A stretch of DNA of 64,000 nucleotides from a bacterium (GCA_029559475.1 JAKQBN010000055.1:7089-71088); one strand, 5' to 3'; shown: positions 35,566-63,789, counted from the first letter of the stretch. Notes: generated by a model from the letters alone, not told the origin. Translations and numbers: made by a program.

Positions 35566-35590
35566 GACTTTTTTGCGACGAATAAATTTA
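35566..35590 (+). repeat. junction repeat M1 (gacttttttgcgacgaataaattta)
   Basis: 22/25 identical to M2 at 37321-37345. It overlaps the RhuM stop codon. Confidence 0.85.
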
Positions 35591-36637
35591 TTTTAATTTC
35601 TTTACATCTATTTTTTTGATATCTGTTTCAAGCTCTTTCAGGCTATTTTCTCTTTCTGCAAGCCTCTGGTTCTCAATGAATTTCTCATATTCGGCTTCTG
35701 ACTTCTCAAGAGCTGCCTGATGACTTATTTTTCCTGCGTGTGTGAGTAATTCTCTCTTGTTCATTTTTAAAATATCGTCAAGCTTTTCTATCCAGTCTTT
35801 CATATACATCGGAATATGCTGATTCGCCATTGTCTCAGCGAACGCGAGATACTGCTCCACAAGAAGCCCGAGAAGGCTCATTTCGTTCTCATTCAGATAA
35901 TTTTTTGCTGTCGAAACTTCGCTTTTTGTAATTCGTGTGCCGGAATCTTTATCGTAAGACTGCATGCCCATCAAAGGCATTTTTGCATCAGCTCTTCGAT
36001 AAATCAGCTCAGCTGCGGTCTGCTTACTTATAGCCCATAATAGTTTATTCTGAACGATCTTGAAGAATTCGATAGTTTTTTCATCTTTGGGATTATAATC
36101 TATGCTTGTTGTATAAATATCTTTGATCTTCTGATAAAAGAACCGTTCTGAGATCCTTATCTCGCGAAGTCGTGCCTGAAGTTCGTTAAAATAATTCATC
36201 GAATTACCCTTTTTGAACCTCTCATCGTTCAGAGTGAAGCCTTTAACGATATATTCCTTAAGCCTCTGAGTAGCCCATTTTCTGAATTGGGTACCCTGGA
36301 GTGATTTTACACGATATCCGACAGAAATTATAGCATCGAGATTATAATAATTAACTTCCGTTTCTTGAGTTTTACCTTCAATTGCACCGTGCTGAGTGGT
36401 TTGTCGGAATTTCCGACATACCATATGTTCATCCAATTCGCACTCTTTAAAAATATTTCTAATATGTTCAGTTATTGTCGTTCTGCCTTTCCCGAAAAGC
36501 TGAGCTATCTGATTTTGATTCAGCCATACGGTTTCACTTTCCAGGATCACATCGATCTTTACTTTGCCGTCATCAGCTTCGTAAACAAGGAATTGGCTGC
36601 TCTTCGAATCATGTATTGTGATATCATTTTTTGCCAT
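35588..36637 (-). CDS. RhuM-family protein
   Basis: N-terminal FLVYEADDGKVKIDVILESETVWLNQNQIAQLFGKGRTTITEHIRNIF and the central region are typical of RhuM. Confidence 0.8.
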   Translation of the reverse strand: MAKNDITIHDSKSSQFLVYEADDGKVKIDVILESETVWLNQNQIAQLFGKGRTTITEHIRNIFKECELDEHMVCRKFRQTTQHGAIEGKTQETEVNYYNLDAIISVGYRVKSLQGTQFRKWATQRLKEYIVKGFTLNDERFKKGNSMNYFNELQARLREIRISERFFYQKIKDIYTTSIDYNPKDEKTIEFFKIVQNKLLWAISKQTAAELIYRRADAKMPLMGMQSYDKDSGTRITKSEVSTAKNYLNENEMSLLGLLVEQYLAFAETMANQHIPMYMKDWIEKLDDILKMNKRELLTHAGKISHQAALEKSEAEYEKFIENQRLAERENSLKELETDIKKIDVKKLK

Positions 36638-36695
36638 ATATTCTCCTCAGTAACTTCATAGGCAATTTAAGAAAAAATTCAAAGATATTCTATAT

Positions 36696-36733
36696 TTACC
36701 TGAATTATTTACATGAACCTTATTATTGACGAT
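36696..36733 (+). repeat. junction repeat N1 (ttacctgaattattta...ccttattattga)
   Basis: 32/38 identical to N2 at 38022-38059, including an exact 16-mer. Contains ACCTGAAT, also present in R1/R2. Confidence 0.85.
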
Positions 36734-36784
36734 TTGATTTAATCGGAAAAATTCGTATATTACGGATAAGAAAACGGAGTAAGA

Positions 36785-37033
36785 ATGCCTGTAATATCAA
36801 GATTCTATGGCATAATAATTAAGATGTACTTCAATGAGCACGGAATTCCTCATTTTCATGCTATTTATAATGAGTATAACGGAGTTTTCAGCATATCTGA
36901 TCTGATAATGATAGAAGGGGATTTGCCTTCAAAAGCACAGACACTTGTAAAGGAGTGGGCATTTAAATATAAAGATGAACTTGAAAAGATGTGGGCAACG
37001 AAAGACATAATTACTCTTCCGGGGTTGGAATAA
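36785..37033 (+). CDS. DUF4160-family protein
   Basis: MPVISRFYGIIIKMYFNEHGIPHFHA is the DUF4160 signature. Confidence 0.8.
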   Translation: MPVISRFYGIIIKMYFNEHGIPHFHAIYNEYNGVFSISDLIMIEGDLPSKAQTLVKEWAFKYKDELEKMWATKDIITLPGLE

Positions 37034-37320
37034 TGAATTTCCATAGAATTAAAAATATAGAGGTTTTGAATAATTATCAGCTCAAAGTTGAATTTATAAC
37101 CGGCGAAATAAAAATATACGATTGCAAACCACTGCTTGAGAAAGATGTTTTCAAAGCTCTGGAAAATGAGAATTTATTCAGGAAAGTAAAGGTTGATATT
37201 GGAGGCTACGGTATTATCTGGAACGATGAAATTGATATTTCTGAATCTGAATTATGGATAAACGGCAAAAATATTAACTCCCAAGTCGCTGAAGACAAAG
37301 CAGATTACAATTCAAAATAA
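37033..37320 (+). CDS. DUF2442-family protein (usual partner of DUF4160)
   Basis: The ATG overlaps the upstream stop (taATG). IKNIEVLNNYQLKVEFITGEIKIYD resembles DUF2442. Confidence 0.75.
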   Translation: MNFHRIKNIEVLNNYQLKVEFITGEIKIYDCKPLLEKDVFKALENENLFRKVKVDIGGYGIIWNDEIDISESELWINGKNINSQVAEDKADYNSK

Positions 37321-37345
37321 GACTTTTTTATAACGAATAAATTTA
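37321..37345 (+). repeat. junction repeat M2 (gacttttttataacgaataaattta)
   Basis: Starts immediately after the DUF2442 stop codon. 22/25 identical to M1. Confidence 0.85.
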
Positions 37346-37350
37346 CTCGA

Positions 37351-37899
37351 TTACGGCAGGCGGCCGAGCAGAAGGTTTAAACTCAGGCCCGCAAAGCTTT
37401 TCTCCGCATTGATATTCCCGAAAGCCGAAAGACTTAATCCGAAAGGACGCGCTCTGTTCAGATCAAGCTGAATTTCCAAAGGAAACCCGAATGTCTGAAA
37501 ATTGTTCATTTCGTATCTTGGTGAAGGATCGTTCTCAATAAAATATTTTTTACCTTCATATTCACCGGTTGTAACACTAATACCGCAAAGATATGATAAA
37601 TGAATATTCCCGAAAGATCGTCCGTATCCGTAAAGCAAACCATAATCCCAGGCTGAACCGCCATTATAAGGCTCACACGAAATAGTGCTACCTCCCGCAA
37701 TTCTCAACTTGATAACGTGCGTGTATTTTGAAAAATTGATTGAAACATTACCGCCTGTTAAGCCTGTATCCTCTGTAACAACTGCGCCTAATCCTGCGCT
37801 GAACCAGAGATGGTAGGGGAAAGGTCCGGTGCGTTCCTTGAAATTTATCGCGTTCAGGCATGAGGCGGTGAAGATCAGGAACAATAAAAAATACTTCAT
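37351..37899 (-). CDS. putative secreted or outer-membrane beta-rich protein
   Basis: N-terminal signal peptide (MKYFLLFLIFTASCLNA). Gly/aromatic-rich alternating pattern. No family recognised. Confidence 0.45.
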   Translation of the reverse strand: MKYFLLFLIFTASCLNAINFKERTGPFPYHLWFSAGLGAVVTEDTGLTGGNVSINFSKYTHVIKLRIAGGSTISCEPYNGGSAWDYGLLYGYGRSFGNIHLSYLCGISVTTGEYEGKKYFIENDPSPRYEMNNFQTFGFPLEIQLDLNRARPFGLSLSAFGNINAEKSFAGLSLNLLLGRLP

Positions 37900-38021
37900 T
37901 TTGACCTCAGTTTTGCAGTCGAATTACACTTTCTGATAATTTAGGAACACTTGAGACTTTTTGCAAGGTAATATTATCGTTTTGCTGTCCTCAGCAAAAT
38001 GATCGGAACTCACATTTCCGC

Positions 38022-38059
38022 TTACCTGAATTATTTATAAAAGCCTTATTATTGAAGAG
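38022..38059 (+). repeat. junction repeat N2
   Basis: 32/38 identical to N1. Its last 11 nt overlap the stop and last codons of the DUF4143 ATPase gene. Confidence 0.85.
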
Positions 38060-39254
38060 TTGGTTTAGACAGAAAATCAAACAGATTTATATGTTTTACG
38101 CCTGACTTTCTTTTAAAAACGACCGGATCCATTGAAATAACATACTTCGGATGGTTGTCCCTGACAGCCTCAAGGGCTGAAAACTCTCTTTCTGCTGTTT
38201 CCTGATTCTGCATCAGATATGATACCTGAATATAGATTTTTTCTTCTTCCTTTTCCGCTATAAAATCAATTTCCTTGTCTCCTATTCTGCCGAATGATAC
38301 TTTATAATCCCTTCTGTAAAGCTCAAGGCAGACTATGTTCTCCAGTATTCCGCCGATATCTTCATCTCTGAATCCCAGTACCGCGTGTCTTAAACCCAGG
38401 TCGCCGGCGTAATATTTTGCGTTCGTGTCAAGATATTCTTTTCCTTTTAAGTCGTATTGCCTGATCTTATGTGTGATCATTACATCGTTCAGGTTGTGTA
38501 TAAGGCTCAGAATAGTCGGAACACTGGTTTTTATGTGCTGGTTCTTCATATATTTTACGACGCTGCTTGCGTTGAACTGATTACCTATGTTATCGAAAAC
38601 AAAGCTCACTACGTCCTCCAGCAGGCTCACATTCCTTACATTGAATTTCTTAACTATATCTTTGAGAAGTATCGTCTGGTAGATAGCATCAAGGAACTGA
38701 AATGTTGCGGAAGCTTGAAAATCCAGATGAAAAAGTCCCGGCAGCCCTCCGAATCTGATATATTTTCTGAATACTTCCTCCTTCGGCTTACTTTCAAAAC
38801 CTCCGAGCTCGGTAAATTCATTGAAGCTGAAAGTATATATTTTGAACTCGACATATCTGCCTGAGATCAAAGTGGCAAGATCAGATGAGAGAAGATGCGA
38901 GTTCGATCCTGTGATATAAACATCCATGCCTTCAGCCAGAAAAGAGTTCACCGACCGTTCCCATTCCTTTATTTCCTGTACTTCATCAATAAGGATAACC
39001 GAACCGGACTTTCCTCCCGATTCGTCTATATAGCTATTCAATACTTTATAGTCAGTTATAAAATCGAACTGACGAAGCTCTTTATTTATTGAAATGACTT
39101 TCTTTTTCGGTTCGTTATGTTTTATCTCAGCTTCGATCTGCTTCAGCAGTTCACTTTTTCCCACCCTTCTCATACCGCTCAGGATCTTTATGACCGGTTT
39201 ACCCATAAAAGGCCTGATCTTTTTTAAATATGTTTCCCTTATTATAGTTTTCAT
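38049..39254 (-). CDS. AAA_14 + DUF4143 ATPase
   Basis: Walker A SGMRRVGKS, Walker B VILIDEVQ. C-terminal DUF4143-like region (GRIGDKEIDFI...). Confidence 0.8.
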   Translation of the reverse strand: MKTIIRETYLKKIRPFMGKPVIKILSGMRRVGKSELLKQIEAEIKHNEPKKKVISINKELRQFDFITDYKVLNSYIDESGGKSGSVILIDEVQEIKEWERSVNSFLAEGMDVYITGSNSHLLSSDLATLISGRYVEFKIYTFSFNEFTELGGFESKPKEEVFRKYIRFGGLPGLFHLDFQASATFQFLDAIYQTILLKDIVKKFNVRNVSLLEDVVSFVFDNIGNQFNASSVVKYMKNQHIKTSVPTILSLIHNLNDVMITHKIRQYDLKGKEYLDTNAKYYAGDLGLRHAVLGFRDEDIGGILENIVCLELYRRDYKVSFGRIGDKEIDFIAEKEEEKIYIQVSYLMQNQETAEREFSALEAVRDNHPKYVISMDPVVFKRKSGVKHINLFDFLSKPTLQ

Positions 39255-39409
39255 GTTTTAATTCCTATTTTAAATTCCTGACAAAATAAAGGAAATTTAA
39301 TATATACTTTAGATAAATGCAAGTTTTTAATTAATTTAAAATGTAAAATTATTTAAATATTAAAGCTGCGGCTTCATACTGCGTAGAAGTATCATTTATT
39401 TCTGACCAC

Positions 39410-39497
39410 TTTTGGCTGTTTTACAAGGATAATAAATAACATTAATGGACAAAAGGAAAGGTTATTTTAACAATATTTTGGCTATTTTACAAGGATA
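39410..39497 (+). repeat. two 22-nt direct repeats (ttttggctRttttacaaggata) 66 nt apart
   Basis: 39410-39431 and 39476-39497 differ at one position. They lie in the 336-nt AT-rich gap upstream of the DUF4143 ATPase gene. Confidence 0.85.
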
Positions 39498-39590
39498 CTT
39501 TATTTTGAACGATTAATTAACAGGCATATAGGGTAAGTTTCAAATCAACGATACAAGATAAAATTCCCAAATATTCTATAACTACCTTCA

Positions 39591-40094
39591 CTACCCCAGC
39601 CCCAGCACCAATTCCGGAATAAACTTATTCCTTGCGTCAGGATAGATCTTCTTTCTAAAGTTCTCTACCGCAATTTTCTCATATAAGTATAAAGACCCTC
39701 CGTCTCCGGCTATTGAATATTTAGGCATAATAATATCACCCAGCTTAATATCCGCTTTCAAAGCACCTGCCGCGCCTATGAATATCACTTTTTTGCATTT
39801 CGATCCGCCCAGAGTCAAACATGAATCGATCGTATTGGCCGCACCCGCCGCTACCTGAATATAGCCGAAACTTTTACCTTCAAATTCTACGGTATAACCG
39901 CAATAATACGGACCTTTTTTTTCTACTCTGACCACAGGATTGTATGCCGAAAAAATAATTTCAGGATTCCACGAAGGAGCCACGATTACCGCATCGTATT
40001 CAAAATCGGGATCTAACCCGTAGATATCTTTCAGCAGATTATCACAGGCGTTATACTTATGCAGGGATGATTTAAATTTTTCGTAGAGGGTCAT
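39591..40094 (-). CDS. nucleoside phosphorylase-family (PNP_UDP_1-like) protein, apparently C-terminally truncated
   Basis: VIFIGAAGALKADIKLGDIIMPKYSIAGDGGS resembles the phosphorylase core. At 167 aa it is short for the family. Confidence 0.45.
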   Translation of the reverse strand: MTLYEKFKSSLHKYNACDNLLKDIYGLDPDFEYDAVIVAPSWNPEIIFSAYNPVVRVEKKGPYYCGYTVEFEGKSFGYIQVAAGAANTIDSCLTLGGSKCKKVIFIGAAGALKADIKLGDIIMPKYSIAGDGGSLYLYEKIAVENFRKKIYPDARNKFIPELVLGLG

Positions 40095-40179
40095 CTATTC
40101 GAACTCCTTTGAGCATTTGAGCCTGAAGCATTCAGATACTTATAACTTTTTTTTGTCGTCAATCTAAGAGGGAATAGTA

Positions 40180-40731
40180 TCATTTTTCAAGAAATTGAAT
40201 AGCTTTATATATATTTGAGTATGATCCTCCTTTAAGTTCTAATTCTGAAGCGTATTGAACGGCTTTATACTGTCCTGAAATTAATTTTTCAACCCACTCT
40301 CTATTTTTTAGAAATTTCTCAGTTTTATCATAGCTCTCAATATATTTCAGTAACTCTTTTTTCAATTCGCCATAACTAGAGTATCGCTTATTGCGCTGAA
40401 CAAAATGGATAAGGAACCAGAATTCTATTGAAGGCAGGCTGTCGCAAATCAGCACGTTTTTATTGTCTTTGTATCTTTTTCTAAACTTTTCCAGTTTATC
40501 CTTCTCAACGTCATTTCTTTGTGATACATCAGCATCGAATACGCATATCGCTACAGCATCGGCTTCTAAAATTTCCTTTACTTTTTTCTCTATCTTCGAG
40601 ATGCAGGTATTACTGTCGCAAAATCTTGGACTCACACTATATTTATAATCTTTAAGAATTTTCAGGTGTTTAAAGTAATATTTTTCTGTTACACCTTCTC
40701 CGATTATATGTATTGCTTGCTTTAATTTCAT
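40180..40731 (-). CDS. RloB/AbiLii-like protein
   Basis: The N-terminal IHIIGEGVTEKYYFKHLK matches the RloB signature (cEGe.TE..Yf). It sits 7 nt downstream of the ATPase partner. Confidence 0.75.
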   Translation of the reverse strand: MKLKQAIHIIGEGVTEKYYFKHLKILKDYKYSVSPRFCDSNTCISKIEKKVKEILEADAVAICVFDADVSQRNDVEKDKLEKFRKRYKDNKNVLICDSLPSIEFWFLIHFVQRNKRYSSYGELKKELLKYIESYDKTEKFLKNREWVEKLISGQYKAVQYASELELKGGSYSNIYKAIQFLEK

Positions 40732-40738
40732 TATAATC

Positions 40739-42034
40739 TTAATCTATATTAGGCACTGCTCCGAATTTTCCGTATTTATATGCTTTCTGCAGAGATGAGA
40801 TTCTGTTAAGACCGTTGAAACCTGTAAGGGGATAAAGCTTTGTCGAGCCGTCTTCTCTTTTTTCCGTGAACCAGAAATTATCCTTTCTAAGAAGATCTGT
40901 TTCGTCGAATAAATTGTCATAGTGAGTCGCAACAAGCACCTGAGCTTGGTCTGAATTACGTAGAAAATGCTCAAGAACATATTCAATAAGCCTTGGATGC
41001 AGCTTTGATTCTATCTCATCTATCGTAATGAATGCGTTATCCTCAATCGATTTAATAATTGCTCCGAACAAACCGAATATTCTTTTTGTACCCTCTGATT
41101 GCCATTCTATAGGCAGTCCGTAAATTTCTTTTCTACCATCGCTGACGACAGTATGCTTGAATTCAGTTACAGGATATTTAAAACTCTTATCTTTTTTTAA
41201 ATCTTCAATAACAGATGCGCGAATACTTAAAAAATTACCTATTGTCTGAGCCTGTTTTATAAAATCATCATCAACACTCTGAACGAATTCTTTGACATTT
41301 ATATCAGAAATATTAAAATCAGCCTCTTTCAGGCACTCAAGCATTTTTAATTTATGGCTAGGGTTTGTTTTAATTAATTCCTCTGAAAAATGCTGTAAAG
41401 GATCGTTAGGCACGATTGAATTGAAAACATGATCAAATAGCCATTTTGTAACATCGCTCAAGCCGTTCAGATAAGCATTTATCTTTCTCAATGCCGCCAG
41501 GACAGACATATTTTTCAAACATTTTACATTTAGTTCATCTTGAGTGATCTTGCTGATATTGTTTTTTCCTTTAAAAACTATTTTGGAAACGTCCGACTTC
41601 TCGTCATAATTTCTTTCAAAAAGAGTAGCAGGCTGAGTACCCGGATACATATCAAGCTTTTCATAAAGGACAGCTTTCTGATCGACCTCTAAATAATAAA
41701 CATATTTGATCCCATCTTTATAAAAAACAAGCTTAAACACGCTCGGGTGGTTTCTGCTTGTTTTATCGAGAAGAAAAGGTATTGCATTGGTGCCGGAATA
41801 CTTATTGTCGGTTCCTATAAACCAGAAATTTATAAGGAACTGAAAAGCAGCTATAAGATTAGACTTTCCGGACGCATTGGAACCATATAAAATGCCCAAC
41901 TTTAACAGGCGGACCCCTTTTGCGGCCTCTACAACATGATGATCTTCAAAAGTCCTGTCTTTCGAAGCTTCGAAAGAATATGTAACTTCATCTCTGAACG
42001 AGAGAAAATTCTTGATTGTAAGTGAATGTATCAT
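40739..42034 (-). CDS. AAA_21/ABC-type ATPase, AbiLi-like partner of RloB
   Basis: Walker A YGSNASGKSN, Walker B/D-loop FITIDEIESKLHP. Confidence 0.8.
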   Translation of the reverse strand: MIHSLTIKNFLSFRDEVTYSFEASKDRTFEDHHVVEAAKGVRLLKLGILYGSNASGKSNLIAAFQFLINFWFIGTDNKYSGTNAIPFLLDKTSRNHPSVFKLVFYKDGIKYVYYLEVDQKAVLYEKLDMYPGTQPATLFERNYDEKSDVSKIVFKGKNNISKITQDELNVKCLKNMSVLAALRKINAYLNGLSDVTKWLFDHVFNSIVPNDPLQHFSEELIKTNPSHKLKMLECLKEADFNISDINVKEFVQSVDDDFIKQAQTIGNFLSIRASVIEDLKKDKSFKYPVTEFKHTVVSDGRKEIYGLPIEWQSEGTKRIFGLFGAIIKSIEDNAFITIDEIESKLHPRLIEYVLEHFLRNSDQAQVLVATHYDNLFDETDLLRKDNFWFTEKREDGSTKLYPLTGFNGLNRISSLQKAYKYGKFGAVPNID

Positions 42035-42371
42035 TTTTCCGGTTCCGGCAGATTAAACATTGTCAGAAATGTAAAACAAAACACTTAATTTGTCAAGTGA
42101 GTTTATGAAAATAGCAGAAAAATTGCAAAAACATAAAATAAGGTTGTTGTATAAATATAATTATCCTATTTGTTGTGTTAACTTTAAAAAATTACTAACT
42201 TATCTATACGCCAATAATATTTTTTCTAATTTCATAATATAATTTTAATTTAAAAATTACTTTGGATTATTATTATTAATGGGATAGATTTAGTTTATAT
42301 TTGTATCGTAAAGTGAAAAGTCAGGGAACTACGGGAGAGTCCAAATGAGTGAGCCTGTAAACGAAAGAAAC

Positions 42372-42439: not shown

Positions 42440-42474
42440 GAGTAAATCTGTAATTAGAGAAAAGTAAAACGCAA

Positions 42475-43209
42475 ATGGCAACGACTAAGATAGAATGGAC
42501 AGAATCAACATGGAATCCGATCACCGGATGCACAAAATTATCCGCAGGCTGCAAATTCTGTTATGCCGAAGTAATGGCGAGAAGGCTCAAAGCTATGGGA
42601 CAGCCGAAATACAAAGACGGTTTCAAGCTTACGCTCCATCCCGACACGCTGACAGAACCTTACACTTGGAAGAAGCCTAAAATGATCTTCGTGAACTCAA
42701 TGAGCGATCTCTTCCATAAAGATGTCCCCGTTGATTACATACAAAAAATATTCAAAGTCATCAAAGACAATCCTCAGCATGTATTTCAGATACTAACAAA
42801 AAGAGCCGACATATTAAGATACTACGACAGTGAAGGCTGGCTTGACTGGCCGCATAACCTTTGGATGGGCGTGACAGTGGAAGATTCAACCGTAACATCA
42901 AGAATTGACTGCCTGAGAAAAACAAAAGCAAGAGTAAAATTCCTCTCCTGCGAACCGCTCCTAAGCTCATTACCCGAACTCAACCTACAAGCAATAGACT
43001 GGGTCATCGTAGGCGGAGAAAGCGGAAGAACACCGCGCCCGATCAAAGAAGAATGGATAATCGAAATAAAAGAACAATGTGAAAAAGCCGGAACAGCATT
43101 CTACTTTAAACAGTGGGGCGGCACCAACAAAAAAGAAGCAGGCAGGCTGTTACAAGGCAAAAGGTACGATCAAATGCCTGAAATGGTCGAGCAAGAAACT
43201 CTAATATAA
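42475..43209 (+). CDS. DUF5131 (phage Gp37/Gp68) family protein
   Basis: MATTKIEWTESTWNPITGCTKLSAGCKFCYA, with three Cys, is the family N-terminus. Also GGESG...FFKQWG. Confidence 0.85.
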   Translation: MATTKIEWTESTWNPITGCTKLSAGCKFCYAEVMARRLKAMGQPKYKDGFKLTLHPDTLTEPYTWKKPKMIFVNSMSDLFHKDVPVDYIQKIFKVIKDNPQHVFQILTKRADILRYYDSEGWLDWPHNLWMGVTVEDSTVTSRIDCLRKTKARVKFLSCEPLLSSLPELNLQAIDWVIVGGESGRTPRPIKEEWIIEIKEQCEKAGTAFYFKQWGGTNKKEAGRLLQGKRYDQMPEMVEQETLI

Positions 43210-43234
43210 AACTTTTTGTTACGAATAAATCTTA
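43210..43234 (+). repeat. junction repeat M3 (aactttttgttacgaataaatctta)
   Basis: Starts right after the DUF5131 stop. Shares acttttt + acgaataaat with M1/M2 at the same spacing (one T fewer). Confidence 0.6.
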
Positions 43235-43279: not shown

Positions 43280-44647
43280 CTAATTCTTAAATATTTTATC
43301 GTATTTTGTGTAATCGAAATTTGGTCCTAGAATTTTACTTGATTTATCTTTTAATTGTTTTGTTATACGATATATTTCATTGTTGTTATAGAATTCCCCA
43401 TTCTCATTGATTAACTTAAATAATAACTCAAAATCACTATTGTCAAAATCGTTTAAAATTTTGCTAATGATATTATCATACGTGCTTAAAGCAGAATAAT
43501 AAGTAAACGATTTTCCACAATAATTTATCAAGAATGTCTTAACTTGAATTTGAGATAAAACAATTTTTGATCTATTATAAAGCTGCATCAGAGCATCTTC
43601 CTGTATACAGTCGTATAGATTTACATTTACATAGCCATTAGGCTCAATAAGTATTTTATCATGTATTTCTTCGATTTTAGATATATGCGCCTCAATGCTA
43701 TTACTTAGAAAATATGCTACTGTAAATAAAGAAATATTTTTGTTAGCTTCGATTTGTATATAATTTTTTACTGTCGAATCTAGGACATTATATATTTCTG
43801 GATATTTGCTAATATATGATGTAAGAGCAGTAATTCGAGAACTACCTTGATTTATAGCCTTATCGTTTATGCTACAAGAAAAATTACTGGGTTTAATATT
43901 GTTGAATTTTTGTGAATTTTGCTTGATTAAATTTATAAAATCTTCAAGATGTTTTTCTGTAAGTGTCTTAATACAAAATACATTCAGATAACGGTTTTTT
44001 TCGCATTCAGAATTATCAAGAATAAATGTAAGTTTCCATAAAGATTCGAATAGTTTTTCTCTCACTGGTTTGTTAATTCTCGAGTAGTATCGTACATTTA
44101 GGAAATCTTCTAATCCCTCAGTACGGACTCTTTCAAAATAATCTGTAGTATTTTTTAAAAATTCATCAATTATCTTTTTACATAATAACGCTTCTTTCTC
44201 AAAGACAATTTCAAACATATTTCTCATGTGGTTTCTAACATTTTCCGGTGTCGGATTTATTAATCTATTTCCATTGTCAATTAATGGATGAGCAGCTATG
44301 TTTCGTTCTTTAACAAGTTCATTTATTCTATGAAATTCTACATCATTAATTAATTCAGTACTATCTTTTATTTCTTGTAACAATGTTTTTTCCCAGTCTG
44401 AAGATGTAGGTTTTAGCTTTTGTTCGTTCTTGATTTTATCAATTATTCTTTTTGCGTTATTATCAGAATATATTTCATCGAGCAAAATCAATTTGTTCAT
44501 TAAATCATAGACTACTACTGAATACAAAACGACTATTGCAGAACGATAATTACCGTTATGATAACTTGATAAGACTTCTTTTAAGTATTCTTTAGTTTGT
44601 ATGTTTGGAATTTTCTTTATCTCATCTTCAATAATAAATTCATCCAT
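43280..44647 (-). CDS. HEPN-like (Rx4H) N-terminal domain protein with unknown C-terminal region
   Basis: Helical N-terminus (NYRSAIVVLYSVVVYDLMNKL) followed by VKERNIAAHP (R-x4-H). aaggtg RBS. Last gene of the six-gene operon. Confidence 0.5.
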   Translation of the reverse strand: MDEFIIEDEIKKIPNIQTKEYLKEVLSSYHNGNYRSAIVVLYSVVVYDLMNKLILLDEIYSDNNAKRIIDKIKNEQKLKPTSSDWEKTLLQEIKDSTELINDVEFHRINELVKERNIAAHPLIDNGNRLINPTPENVRNHMRNMFEIVFEKEALLCKKIIDEFLKNTTDYFERVRTEGLEDFLNVRYYSRINKPVREKLFESLWKLTFILDNSECEKNRYLNVFCIKTLTEKHLEDFINLIKQNSQKFNNIKPSNFSCSINDKAINQGSSRITALTSYISKYPEIYNVLDSTVKNYIQIEANKNISLFTVAYFLSNSIEAHISKIEEIHDKILIEPNGYVNVNLYDCIQEDALMQLYNRSKIVLSQIQVKTFLINYCGKSFTYYSALSTYDNIISKILNDFDNSDFELLFKLINENGEFYNNNEIYRITKQLKDKSSKILGPNFDYTKYDKIFKN

Positions 44648-44679
44648 TCTTCACCTTCTTTTTTTTATTACAATATTAT

Positions 44680-45639
44680 TTAAGAAAATTTATTTAAAAG
44701 AGTTAAAATCTTTTTAATTTCATATTTTATTTCAGGGCTATCATTGATAGAATCAGCGAATTCAGAATCAGTAATGAGCTCTCGAAATGCTCTCATCTTT
44801 TTATAGATACTATCTATTTTTCCAGTATCTTTAACCTGTTCGAAACCATTATAAATATCTTTTTGCCCCGATGCTATCTCAGCGAGAACTTTTTTCGCTT
44901 TTTTATCAGGACACTTAGCTATTTCACCTACCTTTCTGATGTCAGAAGCCTGTTGTATTTCTTTGTTTTTTATTTGCAAAACGAGAGTATTAACTAATTC
45001 AGGATGAGATTTGGTTGCATTATTTATAGATTTGTTCTTGAGCAACTCGTCATAATAACTCCAATTTGTCGGTTCCAAGTCTTTAGTCTCAATCATAAAA
45101 GAGAAGACTTTTAAATATCTTTGAGCATCTCCTTTTTTTATACCTAACTCTTTAGCCATTATGTCAACAGATAGCTTTGATTCTTTACTTCGTCTGTACA
45201 AATATCCAGCCTGCTCGTATGGACTCCAGTCTTTTCTTCCTATAATGTGATATTGCCCAAGAAGAGTAAAAATAGATGATTCATCAATGTCTGAAGGTAA
45301 AATTAAACATTTAACTTTACCCCATGAAATAGGATCTTTTTGACATAAAATTCGATATGCCGCTAATCGGCTATTTCCTTCAAGTACAACTAAATCACCA
45401 TCACGCACAATTAAAGGATCAATTAGACCGCCATTACTTTCAATGGAAAGCCTAAGTTGCTTCACATGCTCCATCGAAATCATCAATTTTTCAATGTTAC
45501 TTTGATCGGGCTTGATGTCATCAGAAACTCTTAGGGCACTATAGACTCGAGGATTATCGACATAGAACTTAAGAGAAGCTTGGAGGATTTCCTCTTCTTT
45601 TACTTGAAACTCTTTTTTGCCAATTGTCAATGTATTCAT
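44680..45639 (-). CDS. ParB/Srx-fold N-terminal domain protein (paralogue 2)
   Basis: DNPR, NGGLIDPLIVRDGDLVVLEGNSRLAAY, GRKDWSPYEQAGYLY. Its start overlaps the SNF2 stop (ATGA). Confidence 0.7.
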   Translation of the reverse strand: MNTLTIGKKEFQVKEEEILQASLKFYVDNPRVYSALRVSDDIKPDQSNIEKLMISMEHVKQLRLSIESNGGLIDPLIVRDGDLVVLEGNSRLAAYRILCQKDPISWGKVKCLILPSDIDESSIFTLLGQYHIIGRKDWSPYEQAGYLYRRSKESKLSVDIMAKELGIKKGDAQRYLKVFSFMIETKDLEPTNWSYYDELLKNKSINNATKSHPELVNTLVLQIKNKEIQQASDIRKVGEIAKCPDKKAKKVLAEIASGQKDIYNGFEQVKDTGKIDSIYKKMRAFRELITDSEFADSINDSPEIKYEIKKILTLLNKFS

Positions 45640-47120
45640 GTTTCACTCTCACTATTTTCATTTAAAATATCTTTAACAAGCTCACCAAAACTATAATCCG
45701 CAACATTTTGGTATTTCTTCAAAACATAATCTCCTTGAGCTAAAAAAGCTGCATTCTGTTTGGCTTTGAGTAAAAGGTCAATCCAAATGTCAATACTATC
45801 TTTAACCATCAAATTATAGATGTTGCAAGTTTTTGTTTGTGAAATACGATGAATTCTATCTTGTGCCTGCAAATAATCATCAAGATTAAAACCGCGATCG
45901 TAAAAAATGACATTGTTCGCAACTGTCAGTGTAAGTCCTTCTTTCGCGGATTGAGGCGTAGCAAATAATACTTTAGCATCTCCATTTTTAAACTCACGTA
46001 CAGAATGTATTCTTTCTTCAATTTTCATTTTTCCGGTAATTTTTACTGCATTAAGGTACTTATACTTTTTACAGAAATGATCAACATTGTCAATAAAAAT
46101 TGACCAAACTATAATCTTTTCATCTCTATTGATTATTTCTTTGATTAATTCATCTAGTTTAGCTTCCTTACCTGAAAAACAGCAGTATAAGTCATCTAAT
46201 AATCTAGGATTTGATGTAATCTGTACCAGTCTTAACAATCTTTTTATTGAATCAGAAGATTCATCAAGTATAGCCACATCATCCCGTTGCAATAATAGTT
46301 GCATCTCTGTTCTAACTTTATCATACATCATGTATTGGGTCTTTTCAAAATCGACAAACACATCATAATACACTTTGTTTGGAAGTGTTATAATTCCGCT
46401 GCTCTTAGTCTCACGTACAGTAAAATCTTTAATTCTCGTAAAAATATTAGATACAGATGATTCAAACACATCTCTTTTTACTTTGTTATTGGACAAATCA
46501 TTAGTAAGATTTGTTGTCGATTTGAACTCAGAGAAATTAGTTCCCAGGCTCTTCCCGTTATCGAGGAAATAAATCTGAGCCCAAATATCATATGGTCTAT
46601 TAGCCACAGGTGTGCCTGTCATTATAACCCGAATCTTAAATAAACTAGAAATCTCGAAAAAATCTTGTGTTAGTCTAGAATCGGGATTTTTTAGTTTCGT
46701 AGATTCATCGATAATAATGGCAACATTCCTAGTCTTTAGAAAAAGCTTGAATCTCACTAACTCACCAGATATAGTTTCAAAATTCGTAATTATTACTCTA
46801 GTAGCGCTATTAAATACATAGTAATTTTCTGTCCGTTTACTTGTTAGGATTCTAGGTGTAATATTAGTATGTATTTCAAACTCGCCACGCCAATTTTCAA
46901 CTAATTGCTTTTTTGTGACAATAAGTACGGTATCAATTTCCAAAAATTCTAACCAATATAAAAGAAGATCAATTGCTATTTTCGTTTTACCTAGTCCTTG
47001 CTCATGAAAGATTGCTGCATATGGCAAATTTTTCATTGCTTCAAAAGCTTCGTATTGATATGGGAATGCATTTAGCTTCGCTGTTAGATTTTGTCCGGGT
47101 AAATTGATTATTTTTCTCAT
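45636..47120 (-). CDS. compact SNF2-family helicase/translocase
   Basis: Motif I HEQGLGKT, motif II IIDESTKLKN, motif VI QAQDRIHRISQTK. 494 aa with no accessory domains. Confidence 0.9.
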   Translation of the reverse strand: MRKIINLPGQNLTAKLNAFPYQYEAFEAMKNLPYAAIFHEQGLGKTKIAIDLLLYWLEFLEIDTVLIVTKKQLVENWRGEFEIHTNITPRILTSKRTENYYVFNSATRVIITNFETISGELVRFKLFLKTRNVAIIIDESTKLKNPDSRLTQDFFEISSLFKIRVIMTGTPVANRPYDIWAQIYFLDNGKSLGTNFSEFKSTTNLTNDLSNNKVKRDVFESSVSNIFTRIKDFTVRETKSSGIITLPNKVYYDVFVDFEKTQYMMYDKVRTEMQLLLQRDDVAILDESSDSIKRLLRLVQITSNPRLLDDLYCCFSGKEAKLDELIKEIINRDEKIIVWSIFIDNVDHFCKKYKYLNAVKITGKMKIEERIHSVREFKNGDAKVLFATPQSAKEGLTLTVANNVIFYDRGFNLDDYLQAQDRIHRISQTKTCNIYNLMVKDSIDIWIDLLLKAKQNAAFLAQGDYVLKKYQNVADYSFGELVKDILNENSESET

Positions 47121-47530
47121 ACGATACTTACGCTCCCGATGTCGTTTAAAATATGAAGCTTGACCGATGAATTTTGTTCCGCTTTGATTCTTTTAGCCAT
47201 GTTTTTTATTCTTGCGTATGAATAAATTGATGTACAAATAATAATATGGCTTTCTTCATCAAATAATGAGGCTTCTCTAATATATGATCTATACTGTTCA
47301 ATACTGTGTTTACGGTCAATATCATTCTCAGTTTTAGCTTCTCCAATTATCAAACGACGAGTATCTTTGTAATATAGGTCAGGTATAAAATTACCAATCG
47401 TTCTTTCTGGTCTTCTGTTACTATCGGGTAAATCTACTAGCACAAGTGCCCTTGCGTCGAAAGGTAATAATAAAAATACATAATTAGCAATTTGGCGAAC
47501 ATAATTTATATGTTCAATAGATTCAGCCAT
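47117..47530 (-). CDS. small PD-(D/E)xK-like nuclease-fold protein
   Basis: FIPDLYYKDTRRLIIGEAKT gives D...ExK with 14-residue spacing. 137 aa. Its stop overlaps the SNF2 start (ATGA). Confidence 0.5.
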   Translation of the reverse strand: MAESIEHINYVRQIANYVFLLLPFDARALVLVDLPDSNRRPERTIGNFIPDLYYKDTRRLIIGEAKTENDIDRKHSIEQYRSYIREASLFDEESHIIICTSIYSYARIKNMAKRIKAEQNSSVKLHILNDIGSVSIV

Positions 47531-47534
47531 AAAA

Positions 47535-48545
47535 TTAATCTTCAGGTTGTATGTCTTTCAATATTTCTTGGAGACCTTCAAAAATATCAAGGAGCATTGT
47601 TTTCTTTTTTTCGTATTCGGGATCACTACCTAAATTTTTTACTTCTTTGTATTCTAGCCTGTTAAGCGCTTCTAAGAATTTTGTACCAAGAACATCATAT
47701 GTAAACTTATCTAGCTCATTATGTGTATTCTCAGTTATAGCTATCTTTTTTACAGCTTCTGAGATATTTCTTCTTAAAAAAACTTTTAACGCTTCTGGTT
47801 CCTTCAGTACTGCGGGTAATTGACGCACATTTTGCGCTGTATCGATGTTATCATCGACAACCCATTTTGCAAAATCATTTTTTGTAAAACCTTTATTGGT
47901 TAGTGCATAAGTTATTGTTGACCGTTGAAGCTCAACAAATTTTGAAAATTCTCTTATATCAAAATCATCACCTTTTTCTTTTACTGCTTTGGCATAATAT
48001 ACTTGCATGTCGCGGTATGCACTTATAAGCTTATTTATTTCTGAAGTATTACCACCGCACATGGATATGATATTTGCCATTGGCAAGCGTTCAATTTCAC
48101 TCAGTTGATGTAGATATTTAGCTTTTGAATACGGATCCCAATCACGAGGACCAACTAAATGTGACTGTAATCTAATGGAATGTTTTTCTGAGTCAGTTAA
48201 GCATTCGTAAATAATGGAACTGATTTTACTCCAAGGGCCTGTTGGATTTAACGCTAGAAATTCTTTATAAATTTGAAGTCTCGTATTCCCTTCGATTACG
48301 ATTAAACGTCCATCCGGTTCTTTACTGACTATAATTGGATGAATAATTCCTCCACTGACCTTAATAGACTCCTTTAGAGTATTATAAGATGTAGATGAAT
48401 CACCGTTACCTGGGTTTGTTAATGCAAGTGCAATAGCTTCACTTGTTATTTCACCCGGATAAATCTCAAGATATTGCTTGATTCTTGGATTGTCGAGGTC
48501 AAGATGAATTTCGCTAATGTCCAATTCAATGTATTTAGGTTCCAT
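47535..48545 (-). CDS. ParB/Srx-fold N-terminal domain protein (paralogue 1)
   Basis: LDLDNPR, SGGIIHPIIVSKEPDGRLIVIEGNTRLQIY, GPRDWDPYSKAKYLH. agaggg RBS. Confidence 0.7.
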   Translation of the reverse strand: MEPKYIELDISEIHLDLDNPRIKQYLEIYPGEITSEAIALALTNPGNGDSSTSYNTLKESIKVSGGIIHPIIVSKEPDGRLIVIEGNTRLQIYKEFLALNPTGPWSKISSIIYECLTDSEKHSIRLQSHLVGPRDWDPYSKAKYLHQLSEIERLPMANIISMCGGNTSEINKLISAYRDMQVYYAKAVKEKGDDFDIREFSKFVELQRSTITYALTNKGFTKNDFAKWVVDDNIDTAQNVRQLPAVLKEPEALKVFLRRNISEAVKKIAITENTHNELDKFTYDVLGTKFLEALNRLEYKEVKNLGSDPEYEKKKTMLLDIFEGLQEILKDIQPED

Positions 48546-48556
48546 ATTTTACCCTC

Positions 48557-49810
48557 TTATTTAGATTTATACTGATTAATTTCTTCGAATCTTAAATCAT
48601 AATACTTCTTTGCGATTTCAGGAAACTCCATTTCAAAATCAATCATTGCTTTATAACAAGAGCAATATCCTTTTATGATGTTTGTATGGGTCAGGTGGTA
48701 TTCCTCATTTGCTTTACAGTACTGTCTAAAGCTTTTCTTTTTTAAAAAGTTTGGTTGATTACACCATCTTGCCAACTGTATATACATTGATTTATATTTA
48801 GATTCTTTATAATCCTCATATCTCATTATATAAGGCAAACATCCATGTTCCATTATTATTTTAATACGTTCAAAAGTATTCTCAATATCTCGTTCATCCT
48901 GGCTATCGTATCCGGTAAGGACATATAATTTTGTGGATTTTTTGTAATATTTTTTCCAAATCTTCAAGCTGTTGGAAATTTTTTCAGCATCTTCAATATG
49001 GTCAAATGCAAATATAAAATCACCTTTGTATTTAACTTTTGCAAGCCGTTCAGCTTTATCAGCTGTCATTAGTCGTATATCTAGACCCTGTCTAAATTGG
49101 AAAGGCTTCCCAGTAGCTATTAATGCATCAAGAATGGTGTAGAAGTCAGGTGAAGCCATAAAATTGTCATCCCATAAATATATGCCTCGTCTTTTTGGGT
49201 CTAAAAATTCCGAGATTGGAGAGTGTTTAATAACACGGTCATATTTCCTGTTAACACAATAACTACATTTTCTAAAACAACCTCTTGTCGTGAATCCGAT
49301 TGAGTAATTCAAGTAATCTTCATATCTAATAACATTCTTAGTAAAATTATCTGTTTGACTAGAAATAAAGTCTGTATAGAGTTCATAATCAGGCATGTGA
49401 TGTTCTATCTTATCCGGTAGATCTGGACTGTCCATCCCATAGAAACCTGTACCTCCGATAATTATCTCTTTATTATCAATTCTCTTTTGAATAACAGCTG
49501 GAATTTTAGTAAAATTAAAAACTTTAGACATTATTAAAAAATCATAAATATCTTCTTTCAATTTATCTGCAATTTCAGAGTAGTCACATATTAATTTAAC
49601 GCTATGTCTGAACTCTTTGCAATATCCCGATATTTTAAGTAAAGCAAGATTTGGATGCTTTGTGCCTTGGTCAAGAAGGTCGGCATCAATTATTCCAATT
49701 TTAAATTGTTTGTCGTTAGCCTCAATTAATTCACAAAAAATGAATCCTAATTTATTTTCGAGGAGTTTGTAGTAATTATTTTTTTGAAGGTTTTCTTTTT
49801 TACTTAACAT
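48557..49810 (-). CDS. radical SAM protein with N-terminal Rossmann/B12-binding-like extension
   Basis: GFTTRGCFRKCSYCVN gives CxxxCxxC. About 170 aa precede the cluster (IGIIDADLL...LALLKISGY). ATG 49810 is preferred over TTG 49819. Confidence 0.8.
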   Translation of the reverse strand: MLSKKENLQKNNYYKLLENKLGFIFCELIEANDKQFKIGIIDADLLDQGTKHPNLALLKISGYCKEFRHSVKLICDYSEIADKLKEDIYDFLIMSKVFNFTKIPAVIQKRIDNKEIIIGGTGFYGMDSPDLPDKIEHHMPDYELYTDFISSQTDNFTKNVIRYEDYLNYSIGFTTRGCFRKCSYCVNRKYDRVIKHSPISEFLDPKRRGIYLWDDNFMASPDFYTILDALIATGKPFQFRQGLDIRLMTADKAERLAKVKYKGDFIFAFDHIEDAEKISNSLKIWKKYYKKSTKLYVLTGYDSQDERDIENTFERIKIIMEHGCLPYIMRYEDYKESKYKSMYIQLARWCNQPNFLKKKSFRQYCKANEEYHLTHTNIIKGYCSCYKAMIDFEMEFPEIAKKYYDLRFEEINQYKSK

Positions 49811-50030
49811 AATTTCCAAGTTTTAAAGTTACAGAATGCTTAACTGAGAGGAAAGTGAGGACTATTTTTGATAGCAATAGACCACTTTTTGTTTAATAGA
49901 ATGAGATATTTTAATGAACTGCTTCGTTTTATAGCTGCGTTATCGTTTCATTTATGACATTAGGAAAATAAAACCTTATGAATGAATAATCAAGTAAATT
50001 GCTTTAGTATTTTGTCTGATATAATTCGAA

Positions 50031-50087
50031 TTAATTAACTTTCTTATACCTGAATACTGCGTAGTTGGTTACGACTGTGCTGTAATG
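50031..50087 (+). repeat. direct repeat R1: displaced copy of the ABC-2 permease 3' end
   Basis: Aligns to 51835-51892 with 4 mismatches and 1 indel over 58 nt. Its minus strand encodes STVVTNYAVFRYKKVN*, against STVVTAYAVFRYKKVN* in the real gene. Confidence 0.9.
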
Positions 50088-50109
50088 TAAAATATATTAT
50101 ACAAATGTA

Positions 50110-50138
50110 TTGACAAAAATAATTGACATGTGTATATT
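50110..50138 (+). promoter_or_regulatory. near-consensus sigma70 promoter of the XRE-Panacea gene
   Basis: TTGACA (50110-15), 17-nt spacer, TATATT (50133-38). A second TTGACA lies at 50123-28. aggagg RBS before ATG 50165. Confidence 0.55.
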
Positions 50139-50164
50139 GCAGCTACATATTATACAGGAGGTTT

Positions 50165-51022
50165 ATGATGGCGATGAATGAATACATTAGAAAAATGAGA
50201 GAAATGAAAAATATTTCTCAAGAGATCGCCGCAAAAGAACTGGGATATACAAGACAGACATATATACAGATCGAGAGCGGCAGCAGAGATATTACTTTAA
50301 GCGAGTTGAAGAAACTTTCGGCTATGTTTGATATTCCTTTTAATAAATTTGTGACCGAAACAGAACCTGACACATTTAACATAGATTTTGAGGAAAAGGA
50401 AGCGGATATTGAGTCAAAGGAGATAAGGATAAGTGTTCCGCAGAACAGAGTCGGTAAATTCAAGGAGGTTCTGCTTTATATTCTGTCTAAGGCGGGAGCA
50501 AAGCCGAACATTGGTGAGACAGCTATTTATAAACTTTTGTATTTTATTGATTTTGATTATTACGAGAAGTATGAAGAACAGTTGATAGGGGCGAATTATA
50601 TCAAAAATCATTATGGACCGACTCCAGTGATATTTAAAAAACTGACTGAAGAAATGATCGCTGATAATGAGCTTGAAGTGATCGAAAAAACTTATTATGA
50701 ATTCAATCAAAAGAAATATTTACCGAGAAGATGTGCCGATTTAAGTAAAATATCCGCCCGTGAGATTAAGCATATTGACGAGGAACTGGAAAGGCTAAGT
50801 GATAAAAATGCAGCTGAGTTGAGCGAGCTGTCGCATAAAGATGTCCCGTGGATCACAGCGAAGGAAGGTGAAACGATTGAATATGAAGGCGTTTTTTACC
50901 GCACAGGAGATACTTCGGTGAGATATAAAAAATTGAAAGATCGTATGTCCATGGCTGCGGAAGCTTTGTATAACGATTATTGTTCTGATAAAGAGCTCAC
51001 TGCATTTACCGATCTTATTTGA
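50165..51022 (+). CDS. XRE-family HTH fused to Panacea (DUF4065/SocA-like) antitoxin-type domain
   Basis: The HTH is ISQEIAAKELGYTRQTYIQIESG. The Panacea-like core is GETAIYKLLYFIDFDYYEKYEEQLIGANYIKNHYGPTP. The ORF-track start at 50123 is actually a -35 box. Confidence 0.8.
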   Translation: MMAMNEYIRKMREMKNISQEIAAKELGYTRQTYIQIESGSRDITLSELKKLSAMFDIPFNKFVTETEPDTFNIDFEEKEADIESKEIRISVPQNRVGKFKEVLLYILSKAGAKPNIGETAIYKLLYFIDFDYYEKYEEQLIGANYIKNHYGPTPVIFKKLTEEMIADNELEVIEKTYYEFNQKKYLPRRCADLSKISAREIKHIDEELERLSDKNAAELSELSHKDVPWITAKEGETIEYEGVFYRTGDTSVRYKKLKDRMSMAAEALYNDYCSDKELTAFTDLI

Positions 51023-51080
51023 ATAAGTAGGTTTTGAGAACTCAACTATGCGGAGTGTAGTTAGCTTGAGGGATGGTATT

Positions 51081-51497
51081 TTAATTTTTAAAAGGATTTA
51101 TGATTTTAAGAGTGTTTTCAATCAGTTGATTATGCTGCATATCTTCGCTGTATAAAATTGAACATCCCGACTCCAATGCGGAAGCAATTACTAAGCTGTC
51201 CCAATATGAGAATCCATACCGGTCTTTGATTTCCATAGCCTTAATTACATCAAAAGTGCTTATATCGACTACATTAAAATTAGCTATAGTCTCGATAATG
51301 ATATCATTTACTTTGCCTTTTGTATTGATAGCTTTTTTTACTAGTGCTGAATAAAGCTCATTTAAAATTTGCGTACTTATGATAATATTTTCAAAATTTT
51401 CAGTAATTAACTTATCGGCTATATTTTTTTTTGAGATATCTTCGCTGTAATAAAGGTAAACCCATACATTGGTATCAATAAAAACCTTATCTGTCAT
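51081..51497 (-). CDS. PIN-domain toxin (VapC-like)
   Basis: MTDKVFIDTNVWVYLY N-terminus, DSLVIASAL, YSEDM acidic residues. Confidence 0.8.
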   Translation of the reverse strand: MTDKVFIDTNVWVYLYYSEDISKKNIADKLITENFENIIISTQILNELYSALVKKAINTKGKVNDIIIETIANFNVVDISTFDVIKAMEIKDRYGFSYWDSLVIASALESGCSILYSEDMQHNQLIENTLKIINPFKN

Positions 51498-51693
51498 ATA
51501 ATTCTTCCCGGTTGAACTTATAGCCCTTTTCAAATTTCATCTGATATCTTTTAACAAAATCAAGAAAACTTTTCTTTTTGTCGTGTTTTTCATCAATAAT
51601 AATGACTTTAATTTTCTGCCCGTCAACCAACCCGAATTCTTCATCTAAAGTCAGGTTATTGTTATTGTATGTGGCGGTAACTACTTTAAACAT
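51487..51693 (-). CDS. putative antitoxin (DUF104-like)
   Basis: 68 aa. Overlaps the PIN start by 11 nt. ATYNNNNLTLDEEFGLVDGQKIKVIIID resembles the DUF104 pattern. Confidence 0.5.
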   Translation of the reverse strand: MFKVVTATYNNNNLTLDEEFGLVDGQKIKVIIIDEKHDKKKSFLDFVKRYQMKFEKGYKFNREELYDR

Positions 51694-51834
51694 AATAATT
51701 TTCTCCTTTTGCTATTCTGGTTCAATTTAGCAAAAAAAAGGATTAATTCCAAATGAAATATCAAAAAAGGCGGTCAGGGATGTTCTGACGCAGATTTTCA
51801 GAAAAACTGTTAATGAACATTGTGATACTCTTCA

Positions 51835-51892
51835 TTAATTCACTTTCTTATACCTGAATACTGCGTATGCGGTTACGACTGTGCTGTAAATG
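51835..51892 (+). repeat. direct repeat R2 (functional 3' end of the ABC-2 permease gene)
   Basis: Partner of R1. Includes the 16-nt near-palindrome tactgcgtatgcggta. Confidence 0.9.
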
Positions 51893-63783: not shown

Positions 63784-63789
63784 GCTTTT

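Follow-up and report, generated by a model that had tools for sequence, protein, structure and literature searches.

How is a ~16-kb block of defence genes put together when no recombinase gene is seen beside it? The question is raised by positions 35566-51892 of a 64,000-nt stretch of bacterial DNA (GCA_029559475.1, JAKQBN010000055.1:7089-71088), called the window below, whose nearest named relatives are metagenome-assembled genomes (MAGs) of Candidatus Delongbacteria. The block occupies a variable region, bounded on one side by a cyclophilin gene and on the other by an ABC-efflux operon, and holds at least nine defence or toxin-antitoxin (TA) modules. The GC fraction is ~0.43 outside the block and 0.28-0.40 between 35 and 52 kb. 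Both marks of a defence island are found here, namely clustered defence and TA genes, and deviating GC together with a content that differs among relatives. The block is a mosaic, accessory defence/TA island of a Delongbacteria-like genome.

Three families of short repeats, M, N and R, stand between its modules. An earlier reading, made from the window alone (the sequence-only reading), had taken them for decaying scars of successive elements that integrated at one att-like site, the 3' end of an ABC-2 permease gene. We propose, with a probability of about one half, that cassettes were inserted or replaced at short common sequences, with long target duplication, and not at one dedicated att site. 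Flanks of ~7 kb and ~16 kb, taken from contig DAOMLF010000006.1 (MAG GCA_035422465.1), which contains the window, were analysed with it, and related loci (L numbers) were compared.

Repeats at the module boundaries

The repeats were found by a direct-repeat search where the sequence-only reading had placed them, all in one orientation. They are listed here with the elements next to them.

35565-35590, plus strand: M1, which overlaps the stop codon of RhuM, upstream of the pentapeptide gene (27.2 bits, E 2e-7)
36696-36750, plus strand: N1, relic of the DUF4143 gene 3' end, with 8 codons, the stop codon and 27 nt of flank ending ATTCAGGTAA (gene orientation)
37320-37345, plus strand: M2, joining the beta-rich gene to the TA module (25.1 bits) and kept beside DUF2442 in L179
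37950-37975, plus strand: M5, degenerate M half-site TTGCAAAAAGTCT (gene orientation) at the 5' end of the beta-rich cassette
37966-38026, minus strand: terminator-like hairpin just after the N2 core (fold z -3.25 for the plus and -2.29 for the minus strand), with a terminator-like site at 38020-38004
38022-38076, plus strand: N2, true DUF4143 3' end and flank, with the last 8 codons, the stop codon and 27 nt
43208-43233, plus strand: M3, joining DUF5131 to the six-gene operon (27.3 bits), at a strain breakpoint
49883-49908, plus strand: M4, a degenerate M-like joint on the far side of the six-gene module
49959-50029, minus strand: the 'leader' that follows R relics, conserved ahead of four different cargo operons
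50030-50085, plus strand: R1, a 56-nt relic and non-functional copy of the permease 3' end
51834-51889, plus strand: R2, the functional permease 3' end, with the last 17 codons and stop codon of the ABC-2 permease

Variation in related genomes

Alignment across relatives (L082, L086, L087, L001, L179 and L183) shows modules present or absent at the repeat boundaries, just as the view of an accessory, modular block had predicted. Sister strains and two related species have modules exchanged precisely at the repeats. About 6-7 of the 12 strain or species breaks fall on repeats, which make up ~2-3% of the block.

The sister L082/L176 (~95% identity) has the same operon and AF2212 gene, followed by a truncated PIN gene. 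Next come a 149-nt permease relic, the leader and a type I restriction-modification (RM) system, which replaces the six-gene operon of the window. The sister L086/L175 (~92% identity) is colinear with the window down to 49908, and homology resumes at 43216, inside M3. Between these breaks it has a UvrD-like helicase with DUF4062, a third R-type copy (R3) with leader, an Mrr-like enzyme with DUF5677, and a relic of the PNP gene. The R3 and leader copy is diverged and its permease part is only 24 nt long, while the PNP relic consists of 70 nt of the 5' end beside DUF5131 and comes from the same gene as the PNP fragment of the window. This comparison shows the six-gene module to be a replaceable unit bounded by M3 and the degenerate M4. 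In L001 and L087, different toxins are located right after the permease stop codon, and their fusion points with the Panacea gene are 51016 and 50922. The cargo adjoining the permease is different in every strain compared.

Downstream of the XRE-Panacea gene (50123-51022; L001 6775-7570; L087 3408-3953) the toxin partner changes from strain to strain. L001 has a MazF/PemK-like toxin (identified by eye), L087 has a different small protein, and in the window no partner is adjacent. The fusion points lie at or inside the gene 3' end.

The more distant locus L183 belongs to another species, in which the core genes are 71-77% identical. Its order is cyclophilin, M1, RhuM, ATTCAGGTAA, M left half and beta-rich gene, and no pentapeptide gene, TA module or permease is found in this locus. 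The beta-rich gene directly abuts RhuM, which gives an empty site for the TA module; the pentapeptide gene is an insertion relative to L183. The RhuM cassette is bounded by M1 and the N1 core, and the TA module by M2 and N1. The RhuM cassette (35570-36710 against L183 11543-12659) is 88% identical between the species, far above the flanking core genes, and this points to recent transfer or strong constraint. The beta-rich gene (37351-37899 against L183 12692-13237) shows 40% amino acid identity, and its 5' 62 nt are 90% identical at the nucleotide level. In the 182-residue protein that it encodes, the signal-peptide region and the C-terminal GRLP are kept between the species, a pattern for which diversifying selection or replacement of the central part may be responsible.

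Some breaks are located inside genes, at 51473 in PIN, at 50922 and 51016 in Panacea, and at a deletion in DUF4160. Another strain breakpoint, 59496 on the TetR side, has no flanking repeat. Here, relative to L082, a 5.6-kb insertion without flanking repeats lies between the -35 box of the TetR promoter and the start codon of a glyoxalase gene. The insertion covers window positions 59497-64000 and beyond (L170 8479-14075) and carries two uncharacterised genes, a 685-residue FGE-sulfatase protein, FitA, BrnT/CopG and FitA-PIN. The FGE-sulfatase-domain gene (61019-63076) contains a 111-nt tandem repeat at 61175-61438 (2.4 copies, 96% identical), which would encode protein repeats of 37 residues.

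The ends of some contigs coincide with the joints. The contig of a 72%-identical relative (L002) stops exactly at the permease stop codon (11123), and assemblies from the same sample (contig ends L084 and L167) break inside DUF4160. Such ends would fit population heterogeneity or repeats at these places. The pentapeptide protein was tried as an anchor for finding relatives and was useless, its best match being 40% identical; searches for exact copies of the DUF5131, beta-rich and AF2212 proteins returned the same locus only.

R repeats and the permease gene

R1 and R2 are direct repeats with 93% identity over 56 nt, and R2 proves to be the permease 3' end, as had been read from the sequence. 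The 1.75-kb insert between them contains TA genes and no mobility domains. A leader of ~70-95 nt follows directly after R1 (in gene orientation) and always stands ahead of an operon.

The length of the R relic is not constant. In L082 it spans 149 nt; the window and L086 have relics of 51-56 nt, and that of R3 in L086 is down to 24 nt. A fixed att site, as the sequence-only reading had assumed, does not agree with these lengths, nor with the intragenic breaks. Only 1 nt separates the 149-nt relic of L082 from the functional permease end found in L087, but ~7-10 nt separate it from the intact end of L082 itself. The nearness to the L087 allele suggests that the intact end and AF2212-PIN were imported into L082 and that the relic is the former resident sequence. 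L086 has three tandem R-type copies (R2, R1 and R3) with different cargo after each, and this array at the permease end is accretion-like. L087 and L001 have a single permease end with other cargo after the stop codon and hence are not clean empty sites.

N repeats and the DUF4143 cassette

N1 and N2 are direct repeats as well (82% identity over 55 nt), and the insert between them is 1.27 kb long and without mobility domains. By this comparison N1 is a relic of the DUF4143 gene end and not a decayed R. The N1 core is kept together with the RhuM upstream region in L183, and an N1-like relic accompanies the TA module in L179. In L179/L180 the DUF4143 cassette is found behind the TA genes and this relic. 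The cassette, 38065-39351, corresponds to L179 970-2256 with 97.6% identity in a permuted context, and the homology stops at 38065, within N2. This suggests that a one-gene DUF4143 unit of 1.29 kb, promoter included, may have moved recently.

The neighbours of the cassette in L179 are only 87-91% identical and are differently arranged. Upstream of DUF4143 in the window there is a 22-nt direct repeat, TTTTGGCTRTTTTACAAGGATA, at 39410-39431 and 39476-39497 (66 nt apart), a copy of which is located downstream of DUF4143 in L179 (2294-2351). It may be another joint element.

M joints

M1, M2 and M3 are direct repeats of 26 nt that are 73-88% identical. The M pattern has 3 matches against 0.43 expected, and a loose form of it has 4 against 0.15. 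In gene orientation the layout is TAAATTTATTCGT-NNN-AAAAAGTYT. The 3' flank that follows the stop codon of the upstream minus-strand gene makes up the left half, and the right half starts the next cassette. As judged from these positions, M is a composite joint whose left half moves with the upstream cassette and whose right half moves with the downstream one. M recurs at ~7 different cassette pairs in four genomes.

A profile built from five M sites recovers M1-M3 at E ~1e-7. Outside the block, the remaining ~48 kb of the window give no significant match, and in the other searched loci all significant matches are at cassette joints. In L183, M1 is kept after the RhuM stop codon, where homology with the window begins at 35570. 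L185 has a site homologous to M5 (16.2 bits) directly after the stop codon of an MFS gene, followed by the beta-rich upstream region, and L179 has two tandem M-like sites. The degenerate copy that had been suspected at 49883-49905 is borne out: ACTTTTTGTT is common to M3 and M4 and occurs nowhere else in the window, and this segment lies 3 nt from the L086 breakpoint, where homology stops at 49908. The sequence-only reading had also pointed to weak copies outside the block. With an E threshold of 10, the profile detects neither these (31-49 with 62-80, and 59508-59536) nor R, N or M4; position 59496 is nevertheless a genuine strain breakpoint.

Other properties of M are less distinctive. The half-motif AGACTTTTT is not enriched (4 matches against 2.1 expected), and the 14-mer AAATTTATTCGTTA of M is also present in a core divergent promoter region (L170 21265). 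The M regions have no significant fold and no inverted binding arms. A degenerate M pattern gave at least 120 matches in viral contigs, about chance by a rough estimate. The composite M is the only feature of this locus that could prove new.

A core motif common to M, N and R

The sequence-only reading had linked the three families through a common core. N and R have only the 9-mer TACCTGAAT in common (local alignment against genomic controls, p ~0.03-0.07). The alignment of M2 with R1 has p ~0.008 before correction for multiple tests, and those of M1 and M3 are not significant. The 9-mer occurs 6 times against 0.5 expected, always within the block. This enrichment was discounted on four grounds: two pairs of matches are duplicates; two matches are coding, one of them conserved in a DUF4143 homologue; the 8-mer also occurs in core ABC genes; and other 9-mers reach 6-7 copies. 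Copies of the 8-mer ACCTGAAT lie in ordinary coding sequence too, one of them as a conserved codon string of DUF4143. The 9-mer ATTCAGGTA, common to R and N, marks two repeat edges, with weak statistics and varying relic lengths. A common core joining M, N and R is statistically weak, and the M profile misses R and N. The three families did not arise by decay from a single att site: R1 is a relic of the permease 3' end, N1 is a relic of the 3' end of another gene, and M is a composite joint. Similarity to R2 was said to fall with distance, and no such gradient was found.

The sequence TACCTGAAT is also seen in L082, at the beginning of a 183-nt direct repeat (14955-15137 and 15573-15755, 99% identical) in the gene after hsdR, presumably hsdS, in the orientation opposite to that of the island sites. 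The repeat probably represents conserved HsdS regions, in which the presence of TACCTGAAT is coincidental.

Searches for a recombinase and for folded sites

Open reading frames of at least 110 codons across the 64 kb have no integrase or transposase Pfam domain, and the called genes of the two flanks belong to no recombinase, relaxase or transposase family. The absence of a recombinase that was first noticed in the window is thus extended to its surroundings. No IntI or Phage_integrase match was found in the window or flanks, no tRNA gene in the window, and no match in an Rfam scan. Attempts to find attC-like hairpins gave none, the DNA folds of the R1, N1 and M1-M3 regions having z values from -0.7 to +1.2. 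The joints read ATTCAGGTA or TTATTCGT...AAAAAGT and not the GTTRRRY core. Scans of viral contigs with the R core and arm, and with the leader, returned no matches.

Two known types of site were rejected. The dif and pdif sites are 28 bp long, with two inverted 11-bp arms around a 6-bp spacer, and alternate in orientation; M, N and R have no ATAA-N6-TTAT architecture and are all direct, so that a Xer/dif (pdif) system does not apply. The CTnDOT-type target consensus was not matched by eye.

Proposed mechanism of cassette exchange

In the mechanism that we favour, the incoming DNA would carry the end of a resident gene followed by new cargo. It would recombine through that homology on one side, and the other side would be joined illegitimately inside the 3' end of the resident gene. 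The product would have the order of intact gene end (R2, N2), cargo, and relic of the old end (R1, N1). Campbell-type integration and homology-facilitated illegitimate recombination would both yield such a long target duplication. M would serve as a short portable homology for the exchange of cassettes.

Several observations lead to this model. The varying R relic lengths and the allele pattern of L082 fit a homology-plus-illegitimate join better than a crossover at a fixed att site. The intragenic breaks, the 5.6-kb insertion without repeats, the lack of hairpins and the lack of a recombinase in the sequence examined point the same way, as does the fact that N copies the end of DUF4143 and not that of the permease. 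The presence of RhuM and the beta-rich gene beside cyclophilin in L183, where there is no permease, means that the older modules did not need the permease 3' end, on which the sequence-only reading had made the whole array depend. The R array in L086 is accretion-like, but the block as a whole is not the product of serial accretion at one permease att site: N originates from DUF4143, and M is composite.

There is a precedent in insertion with long target duplication, described by Nobusato, Furuta and Kobayashi (PMC2853133), in which RM genes are inserted with variable-length direct repeats of more than 30 bp over gene 3' ends and without mobility genes. The island resembles these cases in its defence cargo of less than 20 kb, in the absence of mobility genes, in a GC content below that of the host, and in variable direct repeats of more than 30 bp that copy the target, over the 3' end of a resident gene. 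R measures 56 or 149 nt against a single end in L087 and L001, and the inserts are shorter than 20 kb. It differs from them in that several nested or serial events are present, TA pairs are found in the cargo, M is not a target duplication, and a clean empty-site genome for the R event is lacking.

Core-genome defence hotspots and minimal mobile elements exchange cassettes between conserved flanking genes by homologous recombination. The island shares with this class the different cassettes at the same place between conserved genes and the absence of mobility genes. However, its internal joints have conserved short repeats and gene-end relics, and exchange is not limited to the outer flanks.

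Several points weigh against the proposed mechanism. For RecA-dependent exchange M is a short sequence, but it recurs at ~7 cassette pairs in four genomes, and all sites have one orientation. The three tandem R copies of L086 and the ATTCAGGTA edge at which the end of the N repeat and the start of R3 coincide look more like site-specific accretion. An empty site with the permease followed directly by the leader was not found among the compared strains. In addition, the repeats, the module boundaries and their variation are observed directly, as is the lack of a nearby recombinase, while the recombination events are inferred from sequence comparison.

The single orientation of the sites, the composite M and the tandem R copies are what would be left by a site-specific cassette system, either integron-like or formed by tandem accretion of integrative and conjugative elements (ICE), integrative and mobilizable elements (IME) and their cis-mobilizable relatives (CIME), with a recombinase acting in trans on the core ATTC(AG)GT or on M. 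The recombinase, of the tyrosine or serine type, would be encoded elsewhere in the genome, and every joint would be a hybrid site. We consider this explanation somewhat unlikely. The sites are confined to the island, M is composite as expected of a recombined site, breakpoints fall on the repeats far beyond their share of the block, each R copy of L086 has its own cargo, and the accretion of CIME is an established model (PMC5704250). On the other hand, neither the window nor the two flanks of ~7 kb and ~16 kb contain a recombinase, duplications range from 24 to 149 nt, the statistical link of M, N and R is weak, neither inverted binding arms nor hairpins are seen, ACCTGAAT is also present in ordinary coding sequence, and some breaks are intragenic.

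The comparison with tandem accretion of ICE, IME and CIME (Pavlovic 2004; Bellanger 2011; PMC5704250) shows likenesses and differences. Tandem stacking and the three R copies of L086 are alike, and decayed elements in such systems lack integration genes (PMC5704250). In contrast, no integrase, relaxase or mobility-gene relic occurs in the sequence examined, the repeat lengths are inconstant, N derives from a different gene, M does not represent the end of a gene, and only R is located at the permease target.

A more specific form of the trans-acting explanation, which we regard as doubtful, is a hairpin-less integron-like system of Delongbacteria-like bacteria. Its defence and TA cassettes would end with TAAATTTATTCGT and begin with CAAAAAGTYT, and an unlinked recombinase would act at M and at the related ATTCAGGTA sites. 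A circularised cassette would carry one 26-nt M, and the recombinase would insert, excise and reshuffle cassettes. Integron arrays and clusters of attC sites without an integrase (CALINs) are similar in their joints of one orientation, their small TA and defence cassettes and the absence of an adjacent integrase. Unlike them, the island has no attC hairpin, no GTTRRRY core and no IntI, its cassettes face either way, and several are equipped with a promoter of their own.

Less probable again is that the repeats are functional intergenic signals (3'-untranslated regions, terminators, promoters or leaders) or partly due to chance, in an island built by unrelated events. M is found at convergent gene ends with an AT-rich near-palindrome, AAATTTATTCGTTA recurs in a core divergent promoter region, the leader after R relics always precedes an operon, terminator-like hairpins follow N2 and the permease stop codon, and AGACTTTTT alone is not enriched. 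Against this, it is plain that R1 and N1 are the non-functional remains of coding 3' ends, no significant fold is seen for M, its significant matches are restricted to cassette joints both here and in the other searched loci, and homology breaks within a few nucleotides of the repeats.

A family of miniature inverted-repeat transposable elements (MITEs) or other small non-autonomous transposons, which the sequence-only reading had named as an alternative, would account for short, AT-rich, intergenic repeats but is rejected as hardly credible, since there are no terminal inverted repeats or target-site duplications, no Rfam match and only 3-5 copies, all in one island, and R and N copy the ends of neighbouring genes.

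Gene content of the island and its surroundings

The gene map of the sequence-only reading agrees with the Pfam and PADLOC matches. The latter are PDC-S05 (RhuM), PDC-S01 (DUF4143), AbiLi/AbiLii, PD-T7-3 and a ZorD/DpdE-like SNF2 helicase; PIN, Panacea and DUF4160/DUF2442 are among the Pfam matches in the block. The genes are as follows.

35588-36637, minus strand: RhuM / PDC-S05 cassette (Pfam PF13310, E 4e-100; PADLOC PDC-S05)
36785-37320, plus strand: DUF4160-DUF2442 TA-like pair, opposite in orientation to its neighbours (Pfam)
37351-37899, minus strand: 182-residue signal-peptide ('beta-rich') protein, with no Pfam or PADLOC match
38049-39254, minus strand: AAA_14/DUF4143 ATPase, PDC-S01 (Pfam and PADLOC), in the cassette 38065-39351 that acts as a unit
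39591-40094, minus strand: truncated PNP_UDP_1 gene fragment, whose Pfam match spans profile positions 66-112 of 233 only
40180-42034, minus strand: AbiL-type pair, AbiLi (AAA_21) and AbiLii (RloB) (Pfam and PADLOC)
42475-43209, plus strand: DUF5131 gene, in reverse orientation, 97% identical in L086 (Pfam)
43280-49819, minus strand: six-gene operon with a PD-T7-3 homologue, an SNF2 helicase and four uncharacterised genes (Pfam, PADLOC)
50123-51022, plus strand: XRE-Panacea antitoxin-type gene (Pfam)
51081-51693, minus strand: AF2212-like and PIN TA pair, with PIN truncated in L082 (Pfam)
51835-52962, minus strand: ABC-2 permease, the last gene of the TetR-OEP-HlyD-rSAM-ABC efflux operon

The six-gene operon (43280-49819) fits no complete known defence system. 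Two of its proteins are weakly similar to PDC-M38A/PD-Lambda-5, the SNF2 helicase resembles the C-terminal half of ZorD/DpdE, and the proteins of 137 and 420 residues are uncharacterised.

A second low-GC, defence-like island occupies positions 1-13064 of the window. It contains DUF7663 with a Type ISP restriction-modification enzyme, DUF4062, Schlafen/AlbA_2-HATPase, ORF6N, an AAA ATPase, and a MoxR-like AAA protein with a VWA-like DUF2201 protein; WYL and RmuC genes are found in addition in the flank that precedes the window.

Implications for defence islands

The locus bears on the way in which islands without an integrase or transposase gain and lose defence systems. Its joints are resolved to the nucleotide, and several natural variants and one cross-species empty site are available, so that the rival mechanisms can be tested with read data. 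Should M prove to be a recombination site, it would define a new type of cassette system, in a candidate phylum that has hardly been studied. Otherwise, the island is a clear non-proteobacterial case of insertion with long target duplication, in which the phenomenon also covers TA genes and defence genes other than RM.

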